A stretch of DNA of 64,000 nt, filler included, from Stramenopiles sp. TOSAG23-3 (taxonomy: Eukaryota): the NCBI GenBank assembly GCA_900128585.1. It is 15 parts of 15 records of this genome, joined end to end, with 100 filler letters (N's around TTAATTAATTAA, not from the genome) between each part and the next. Parts side by side here need not be neighbours in the genome. Positions count along the whole stretch, not along the records: positions 38,664 to 42,849 come from LT643920.1; 14 more parts are not named here. The stretch is one strand, 5' to 3'. Positions 41,456 to 42,849 of this stretch are shown here, one piece after another (position 1 is the stretch's first letter; each line of letters opens with the position of its first letter). Made by a program: the position numbers and the translations under genes. Below the pieces are notes generated by a model, which saw only the letters and a list, made by a program, of their open reading frames with translations, searched no databases and was not told the origin of the DNA.

Positions 41456-42849
41456 ATGTCAGGGGCAGGAAGTAGTGGAGACTTTATGGACGATTTGGAA
41501 GAGGTTGCACTGGTTGGTAGCGGCATAAGCGCACCCACGAATCATATTTTGACACTACACCTGCACCGACCTATTTACGACAGTCTTGACGCCCACCCGG
41601 TTAAAATTGAAGGCCTGCTGTTAAAAGTACCAACTTCACCTTACAAGGGCAATGGTCACACTATCAGGCTGATAAGCCTTGTAACACTCCACGGAAATAG
41701 AAAAGACGATTTGGATTTTCGTAAATACATTTTTCTTGATTGGGGACGGAACAACGACCTAGAAAATTTACAGAATACCTTTCGTAAAGGAAAGAAGACG
41801 AAATTGAACATTGTGGACATGAAGACAAAGGGAACACTACCTATTCTAACAAAACCAAAATATAGCGACTATTACGTTATGTACCGGCGCAAAGGAGATG
41901 GAAAGGACCCTGAATACGAACGGGTTAGCATCCAATTGGAGGGGGAAGAACGTTATTTGGATACAGCCAATGCAATACAGCTGTACTCACACGACGAACT
42001 AGCCAAACTTGAAAAACTTGAAAATAAGCCGAAACAAAACAATCGTGGGACGAAACGGAAAAGGGAGGCTAACTCACCGGGTGAGTTCCCCTCGGGACTC
42101 ACAGCCGGTACCCCCTCTCATGGACATTTGATAGGCGAGCCTTACGACTTTGAGACTGATATCCTCCGGTGCAATACCCTTATCACCAACCATTTACGAT
42201 GTTACTCCGACGAAAGGCTCAAGGAAGACAAGAAACCGGTTCCCGATGAAGTCCTGCCGGCACTCCGAAAACTACAGCAGTACACCTACAAGTGGAAAGA
42301 CGGCACTCGAGACGCCGGCCCAATGGCCCAAGACATTTTCCAACTCTTTTCCAAATTGATACCGGGAGTGGTGACGTACGAAGACGGAACAGTGCCAACA
42401 TCATTGCAAGCGATCAGGGACAGGGGATTTTCCAACGGCAAGTTGGTAGTGCAACAAAACGCGTTCAATATGTTGCAAACCAAAGCCATCCAAGAGTTGG
42501 CCAAAGGGCTTGATAGCCTGGAGCAACAGGTTGTCAAAAATACAGGGCAAATAGAGCAAAATACTGGAAATGTTCAAGGGATACGTTCCACATTAATAAA
42601 GCTTTTTCATAATGCACTTCGTGAGTTTGAAAGCCCATTACAGAACAATGCCATACCAGCCGATTCTATGAGCACCCCCCTTCCGGCAGGCCCACAGAAT
42701 TCAGAAAGAATCGCCAAATTTTCGTCTCAAGTGCCTTTTTCGGTCGGTTCACAGGTTCTCAACTCAACGCCCGAGGAACAGCAAGCGATCGCAACGAGTC
42801 AGGCACTAAGAAAACTTAACGACGAATTGAAACTGGCAAATGACAAGTT
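41456..42849 (+). CDS. Peptidase S74 / intramolecular chaperone autoprocessing (ICA) domain protein, 3'-truncated
   Basis: YSDERLKEDKKPV...LRKLQQYTYKWK...AGPMAQD, followed by coiled coil KAIQELAKGLDSLEQQV. The Ser251/Lys256 dyad is intact; NLS-like RGTKRKRE lies upstream. Confidence 0.8.

Follow-up and report, generated by a model that had tools for sequence, protein, structure and literature searches.

MYRF and its Dictyostelium counterpart MrfA are laid out as an NDT80 domain, a stalk, an ICA domain, a coiled coil and a membrane anchor (PMC8326128, PMC3742443). The ICA class is defined by a Ser-Lys dyad (PMC3742443), and its cleavage in MYRF requires the trimer, the beta-helical stalk lying in the trimer interface (PMC8326128). 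MYRF cleavage appears constitutive, occurring also in E. coli and yeast, and its purpose has been called a puzzle (PMC3742443). In phage fibres as in MYRF, the ICA is described as serving the N-terminal product (PMC3742443, PMC8326128). S74 is absent from the main text and from the 12 N-terminal classes of a survey of fungal NLRs (PMC4986451). Searching the literature outside subscription journals, we found MYRF/MrfA as the only characterised eukaryotic use of an ICA, and found no description of S74/ICA joined to NACHT, NB-ARC or a helicase.

NLRs, Schlafen and Nhi proteins have infection-sensing roles, and helicases of the Schlafen/Nhi type sense nucleic acid. Autoproteolysis inside an immune sensor chain is known from NLRP1, CARD8 (FIIND) and PIDD1, and in NLRP1 and CARD8 the two fragments remain together until one of them is attacked. 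STAND proteins form larger rings, into which a three-fold ICA fits poorly.

The locus studied here belongs to a family in which an S74 head is joined to an NTPase, a combination of known parts that is undescribed, real and intact-looking. The reading that we prefer, and hold with about even confidence, is that of a host gene whose product would carry a self-cleaving head on an NTPase, free a trimeric fragment that acts in the nucleus, and sense infection through its tail.

The open frame and its surroundings

The window, by which we mean the whole stretch of 64,000 nucleotides of DNA that was analysed, strings together unrelated contigs of about 4.2 kb by means of 14 identical linkers (N44-12 bases-N44, at positions 4201, 8501, 12801 ... 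59957), and because the linkers join unrelated contigs, gene neighbourhoods across them are meaningless. The S74 open frame lies at the end of contig G000:C4034 (4186 bases), one of the 7088 contigs of a 28.4 Mb assembly, and runs for 464 codons without a stop until its 3′ end is lost with the contig. Genes to the right of 42849 are not its neighbours, since an artificial join follows. The features of the contig are:

39471-40538, plus strand: upstream host gene on the same contig, an IQ calmodulin-binding-motif protein (PF00612, E 2.6e-6)
40720-41455, no strand: host-type intergenic DNA, 31% G+C with simple repeats (from composition)
41456-42849, plus strand: truncated S74 open frame, 464 codons (frame scan, contig lookup)
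42850-42949, no strand: artificial, non-biological join between unrelated contigs (N44-linker-N44)

The composition of the stretch before the gene agrees with the AT/GA-rich, host-type upstream DNA described in the first-pass annotation. The Pfam scan placed the 31 other open frames scanned in the window in ordinary eukaryotic families or returned no match.

Elsewhere in the window, a glycosyltransferase of family 1/4 and an NT5C 5′-nucleotidase domain share one fusion (9095-11572, minus strand), and a TauD-type dioxygenase spread over two frames leads into an aldo-keto reductase (19190-21180, plus strand), a fusion gene with an intron or a frameshift. At 34535-37935 (plus strand) two long open frames overlap on the same strand, one matching reverse transcriptase (E 7e-13) and the other, of 1089 aa, without a Pfam match; the locus is likely a retroelement.

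The predicted self-cleaving head

Within the 464 residues available, the protein is divided as follows:

41537-42010, plus strand: N-terminal domain (about aa 28-185), beta-rich, without a family match (profile searches, fold model)
42044-42067, plus strand: RGTKRKRE (aa 197-204), a basic cluster and putative nuclear localisation signal (from sequence, the function being presumed)
42140-42205, plus strand: stalk (aa 229-250) directly before the predicted cut site (trimer-model interface, analogy with the MYRF stalk)
42206-42490, plus strand: Peptidase_S74/ICA domain (aa 251-345; Pfam, alignment, PDB sequence search)
42458-42580, plus strand: C-terminal helix of the ICA, passing into a predicted three-stranded coiled coil (aa 335-375; fold and trimer models)
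42689-42849, plus strand: pre-helicase segment (aa 412-464), which runs directly into an SF1 helicase in four of four relatives

Pfam Peptidase_S74 (PF13884) scores 42.2 bits over aa 251-301 (cut-off 22, E 1e-10), and at these values the match is not chance. The intact Y|SDERLK motif with its serine at 42206, reported at first pass, is confirmed, and YTYKWK, GPMAQD and the coiled coil after them are also where they had been placed: YSDERLK begins at aa 250, YTYKWK at aa 276 (nt 42281) and GPMAQD at aa 288 (nt 42317). Ser251 (TCC, nt 42206-42208) and Lys256 (AAG, nt 42221-42223) form a dyad spaced five residues apart, as the ICA class requires. D252, R254 and K256 are unchanged in all nine aligned family members, and the motif carries Ser in 9 of its 11 copies and Cys in both copies of the relative C2391. 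By analogy with the family, the cut is predicted to fall between Tyr250 and Ser251; aa 1-250 has a calculated mass of 28.4 kDa, the size of about 28 kDa that had been foreseen for the fragment.

Modelling of aa 210-364 as a trimer, which had been suggested as a check, gave a score of 0.94, compared with 0.01 for the best of three controls, with contacts agreeing by at least 79% between runs and pLDDT of at least 84. In a microbial calibration 21 of 30 solved pairs passed the mark used and none of 23 single chains did; on eukaryotes 17 of 29 passed, but only one of seven where no older solved relative exists. Because like complexes have been solved, the pass possibly stems from resemblance to known ICA structures and shows likeness more than binding; the model may nevertheless be taken to support an ICA homotrimer formed via the C-terminal coiled coil. 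The stalk lies in the modelled three-chain interface, so that a released fragment would stay trimeric.

The closest solved structure by sequence in the PDB is the phage GA-1 chaperone 3GUD (E 6e-5), no MYRF chain being found at E ≤ 10, and the best family matches of the ICA are the phage tail fibres of PHROGs, which aa 230-375 match with E 3e-9 at best. These matches are what a viral fibre gene, from a phage or a polinton-like virus, or a recently domesticated one, would produce; S74 fibres are described as common in polinton-like viruses (PMC12220804), and the genome contains such an element, C6602. We nevertheless consider this origin, which the first-pass annotation had offered as an alternative, very improbable. 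In all 80 viral loci the ICA ends the protein, the distance from Ser to stop having a median of 94 and a maximum of 109 aa, whereas it is internal here, followed by at least 214 aa in the window protein, by 384-939 aa in the four longest relatives other than the database protein P0003, and by 462 aa in P0003. In the contig context available for host assignment (4.2 kb, on the 5′ side) the neighbour is a host gene, and GC3 is 0.478 for the S74 open frame against 0.493 for the IQ neighbour and 0.255 for the C6602 fibre. Neither viral contigs nor phages yielded a relative of the front domain.

A quick tree of the ICA (114 columns; 88 rows, comprising 12 of the family, 68 viral ones deduplicated from 80, 3 others from the same genome and 5 others) also sets the family ICAs apart from the three other S74 domains of the genome: a branch with SH-aLRT 100 separates all 12 family rows from the rest, and their stem is very long. 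Being a quick version, with so few columns, a long stem and no MYRF row, the tree cannot name the donor.

Other S74 genes of the genome were seen along the way. C6602 (7000-16999) is, by eye, a low-GC polinton-like element with packaging-ATPase-like and tyrosine-recombinase-like open frames and an S74-tipped fibre gene. Four more fibre-like S74 genes stand among host genes (C635, C29, C5210 and C6973); the protein of C29 has a hydrophobic segment after the coiled coil, that of C5210 a signal-peptide-like start, and that of C6973 continues for about 130 aa beyond the ICA.

Ahead of the ICA, the first-pass annotation had seen a beta-rich-looking region of about 250 aa ending in RGTKRKRE. The beta-rich part stands, reduced to a folded domain of only about aa 28-185 that is followed by a basic linker and the stalk. 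The pI of aa 28-205 is 9.6. The fold model of aa 20-205, with a mean pLDDT of 57, weakly suggests an Ig-like beta-sandwich. In a wide fold search with this weak model (VIA-align), the best hit was an unrelated Ig-like domain at a background-level Z of 5.0, and none of 48,161 chains reached Z ≥ 8. The longest alignments in that search were to the DNA-binding domains of p53, CEP-1 and CP2 (117-124 residues), at Z 3.0-3.2 and rmsd 4.2-4.6, which is below background. NDT80 and MYRF were absent from the best 50 rows, a result that does not exclude them. Foldseek, which had been proposed for the N-terminus, returned nothing at E ≤ 0.001 from the PDB and BFVD with the aa 20-205 model, or from the PDB with a model of aa 1-364 (pLDDT 39.5).

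The profile searches agree with the absence of NDT80 and tailspike motifs noted at first pass. PF05224 (NDT80_PhoG) has no match at E ≤ 10 in the window protein and none at E ≤ 1 in the front domain alone, and the MYRF ICA family of Pfam has none in the protein at E ≤ 10. A PF05224 search across the genome was also empty, but it gave no hit in any control and so carries no weight. Against Pfam and PHROG the front domain has no match of note. In the ESM Atlas, the clusters near it carry DG1062_N (PF28397) in 50-60% of their members, an assignment we rejected at 0.77-0.78, a level often reached by shuffled proteins; the front domain of P0003 gave no usable match there. By hhalign the domain is homologous in part to those of the relatives C3635 (E 8e-6) and C2391 (E 8e-4). 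A likeness by eye to C741, C3926 and P0003 was discarded, as 49, 84 and 89 of 200 shuffles did as well; for P0019 the number was 4 of 200. A profile search with the front domain for longer proteins found P0002 alone. The domain varies faster than the ICA: in P0004 and P0005, 109 and 115 of 158 residues are identical to the window protein (69-73%), compared with 93 and 95 of 95 in the ICA (98-100%).

RGTKRKRE sits 54 residues ahead of the cut site. It is equalled by 8.8% of 2000 shuffles (P 0.088) and so, taken alone, is not clearly beyond chance; relatives lend it support, a basic cluster reaching P ≤ 0.011 in four of seven members and chance level in two, and lying 51-93 aa ahead of the cut in six of the seven.

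The lost C-terminus and the family

The open frame breaks off at RKLNDELKLANDK. Two other contigs of the genome match its final 53 residues, at 68% and 58%, and a third does so at the DNA level. In four of four relatives (these three contigs and P0002) the terminal motif is followed by LTENQ, by a Walker A about 40 residues on and by further SF1 motifs, and on these grounds an SF1 helicase is the most likely beginning of the lost C-terminus. The tail of the window copy is most likely of the Schlafen/Nhi/AbiO-like kind, judging by the weak scores of the relatives' helicases (SLFN-g3_helicase E 1.7e-4, below cut-off; Nhi 5.6e-6; AbiO 9.2e-6).

Over 377 aa the window protein is 78% identical to P0002 and to its cluster mate P0004. 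In these relatives a single chain comprises the front domain, the ICA, the coiled coil, an additional segment some 250 aa long and the start of the helicase. P0002 has a second match, just ahead of its helicase, to the last 84 aa of the window protein (E 2e-6); the extra segment between (about aa 365-640 of P0002) has no Pfam match and is missing from the window copy. The P0002 helicase scores 21.4 bits with PF09848, against a cut-off of 24, and the sequence ends after Walker B.

A membrane anchor had been expected in the missing C-terminus. The relatives point instead to the helicase, and hydropathy reaches a maximum of 0.9 in the 464 aa of the window protein and of 1.13 in the 897-aa P0004. 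NB-ARC and NACHT are likewise absent from the available 464 aa. A search of the source assembly for the continuation of the open frame returned other copies only, and not the helicase of the window copy. In all three helicase copies found in the genome (C1011, C909 and C5653) the frame is broken between Walker A and the next motifs, at a position that differs from copy to copy, which would be either decay or assembly errors among near-identical copies. On C5653 (437-2602, plus strand) the SF1 helicase paralogue has a protein kinase fused at its C-terminus.

The same head is found before other NTPases. C3635 has the front domain, ICA, coiled coil, a hydrophobic segment, NB-ARC and TPR; C2391 the front domain, two Cys-type ICAs and NB-ARC; C4904 the ICA, NB-ARC and ankyrin; and in the database proteins P0003 and P0010 the same ICA is joined to a NACHT-type domain. 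As the module precedes a helicase, NB-ARC-TPR, NB-ARC-ankyrin and NACHT, it appears to be a swappable self-cleaving head on NLR-like NTPases, and the sequences point to a small family whose members carry a portable head on different sensor-type NTPases. The libraries gave 14 matches among 1.84 billion representatives, six of them at E ≤ 1e-10; GTDB genomes gave no relatives of the family, and a metagenome scan gave one ICA fragment among 134 candidates.

Exchange is visible at both ends. P0006, which may be a metagenome chimera, bears a window-type front domain (142 of 158 residues) on another ICA subtype (41 of 95). C3635 and C741 are 79% identical in their NB-ARC; where C3635 has its ICA, the front end of C741 instead matches CHAT weakly (E 0.015, below cut-off) and has no ICA. 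With C3143, which has ankyrins, the identity of the C3635 NB-ARC chassis is 62%.

The C741 protein (606-3899, minus strand; NB-ARC-TPR) has in addition an N-terminal KKRK cluster and a beta-rich-looking domain, and its CHAT region shows His-Gly and Cys motifs by eye, a putative second protease on a C3635-like chassis. In another NB-ARC protein, on C3926 (1-2616, plus strand), the cut-off N-terminus ends by eye in a beta-rich stretch followed by PTKKRK, and recalls the ends of Ig-fold transcription factors.

C3635 also bears on descent from MYRF. Between its coiled coil and NB-ARC (aa ~487-505 of a 1057-aa frame) lies a hydrophobic 19-mer with a Kyte-Doolittle value of 2.23, which is likely a transmembrane helix and would give an NLR-like protein a MYRF-like topology; the segment is absent from the close paralogue C2391, and an in-frame GT-AG intron of 50-120 bases does not explain it. 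With this helix after the coiled coil, with the common order of beta-sandwich, basic cluster, stalk, ICA and coiled coil, and with p53-type domains giving the longest fold alignments, the protein could be a very diverged relative of MYRF/MrfA, its front domain an unrecognisable NDT80/p53-type one and the NTPase tails later additions. We think this distinctly unlikely: neither NDT80_PhoG nor the MYRF ICA matches, the solved chain recovered by sequence is 3GUD and not MYRF, the window protein and P0004 show no hydrophobic segment, and the Z-scores of the p53-type domains are those of the background.

Part of the window stretch was present in marine or seawater metagenome runs in 20 of 22 rows among the matches listed, from 13 studies, and only one row among those listed contains half or more of its words. 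An independent metagenome contig bridges 41729-42837. The best DNA contig departs from the window sequence at 42555, and a contig from a poly(A) library at 42572, in each case immediately behind the coiled coil; differing continuations in other records join it at about the same place (42555-42572). The window copy may therefore be a mosaic, or one allele among several. Two RNA libraries, one of them poly(A), have contigs over the ICA with 1-7 differences, which may come from a close paralogue, and DNA in the libraries is possible; neither the front domain nor the intergenic DNA nor the IQ gene has an RNA contig over it, and the contigs show presence only.

These alternative continuations, the frame breaks in all three helicase copies, the Cys in place of Ser in C2391 and the fragmentation of the assembly would fit a decaying or chance chimera in a fast-shuffling family, with an ICA that is perhaps uncut or unused and a copy that is possibly broken or a mosaic allele. 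We hold this to be quite unlikely, as the frame stays open for 464 codons, P0004 and P0005 match the ICA at 93/95 and 95/95 residues with front domains at 69-73% identity, an independent metagenome bridges the junction, and the ICA is covered in two RNA libraries, DNA carry-over allowed for.

A possible mechanism and its known relatives

In the preferred reading of a self-cleaving host protein, three chains would meet via stalk, ICA and coiled coil, as modelled, which would align Ser251 and Lys256; by analogy with the family, this pair would cut the Tyr250-Ser251 bond. A stalk-held trimer of 28-kDa fragments would thereby be set free, and the basic cluster would carry it to the nucleus, where the beta-sandwich might, tentatively, bind DNA or chromatin as its most likely target. 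The NTPase, standing in place of the MYRF membrane anchor, could act as a tether or as a gate on trimer formation, and such a gate might open on foreign nucleic acid in the helicase forms, or on a ligand in the repeat-bearing STAND forms. The gating and the nuclear role are the weakest steps of this proposal, and gating by an NTPase is without precedent, because MYRF cleavage appears constitutive (PMC3742443).

The same observation on MYRF leads to the main rival: the cut would be constitutive, and the ICA would trimerise and free the ICA-coiled coil-NTPase piece as the active one, with the front domain serving as decoy, sensor or inhibitor, much as the paired fragments of NLRP1 and CARD8 operate. 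The much faster change of the front domain than of the ICA between close relatives would suit this, as would its lack of a match to any DNA-binding family and the kinase that one helicase paralogue has of its own. In the accounts of phage fibres and MYRF cited above, however, the ICA serves the N-terminal product; here, too, the stalk lies N-terminal of the cut, within the modelled interface, and the basic cluster recurs on the N-terminal side. We judge release of an active C-terminal piece to be unlikely.

The fullest form of our proposal is that a phage-derived, trimer-dependent ICA has become a regulated switch, in which a helicase or NLR-type NTPase senses infection and makes the trimer form, whereupon the chain frees a trimeric transcription factor of a new family. 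In this form the proposal is rather unlikely. If true, it would be the first signal-gated ICA; eukaryotes would have recruited the domain a second time, separately from MYRF, and one protein would span an immune pathway from sensor to gene. With an ICA ahead of helicases and of NLR-type NTPases, it can be asked directly whether a signal controls the cleavage, and the S74-head family is a candidate for an antiviral pathway in a marine protist that is both widespread and uncultured. By analogy with MYRF, the head should process itself in E. coli, and because it is small as well, the first test would be cheap.

Among the systems to which the protein can be compared, NLRP1, CARD8 and PIDD1 share autoproteolysis within a sensor chain, but use an unrelated ZU5-UPA protease, whereas the ICA depends on trimerisation and would cut on the N-terminal side of the NTPase. 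Schlafen (SLFN11-type) and the Nhi/AbiO nuclease-helicases have an N-terminal effector on an SF1 helicase, as the window copy probably does; in the window family, however, the ICA stands between front domain and helicase, and neither a nuclease nor an AlbA domain was found, Pfam giving no match to the Schlafen (AlbA-type) nuclease domain in the window protein. The paralogues resemble NLR/STAND proteins, such as those described in fungi (PMC4986451), in their order of effector, NB-ARC/NACHT and TPR/ankyrin, with front ends swapped on near-identical NTPases, the window copy differing in that it seems to carry an SF1 helicase in place of the STAND domain. Phage and polinton-like-virus fibres, for instance the GA-1 neck appendage (3GUD), have the same domain family and the same dyad, but here the ICA lies within the chain, not at its end as a piece to be discarded, the gene is a host gene and the front domain is not that of a fibre.

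The nearest likeness in layout is to MYRF and Dictyostelium MrfA, as the first-pass annotation had argued in calling the protein MYRF-analogous with a different payload. That logic appears to hold, on sequence and models, for the internal ICA with its Ser-Lys dyad, the short stalk before the cut, the trimeric coiled coil after it, the basic cluster on the released side and a front domain without an NDT80 profile match. It fails for the membrane anchor: in its 464 residues the window protein has neither this nor an NDT80 or MYRF-ICA match in Pfam, and in the family an NTPase follows the ICA where MYRF and MrfA have their anchor.
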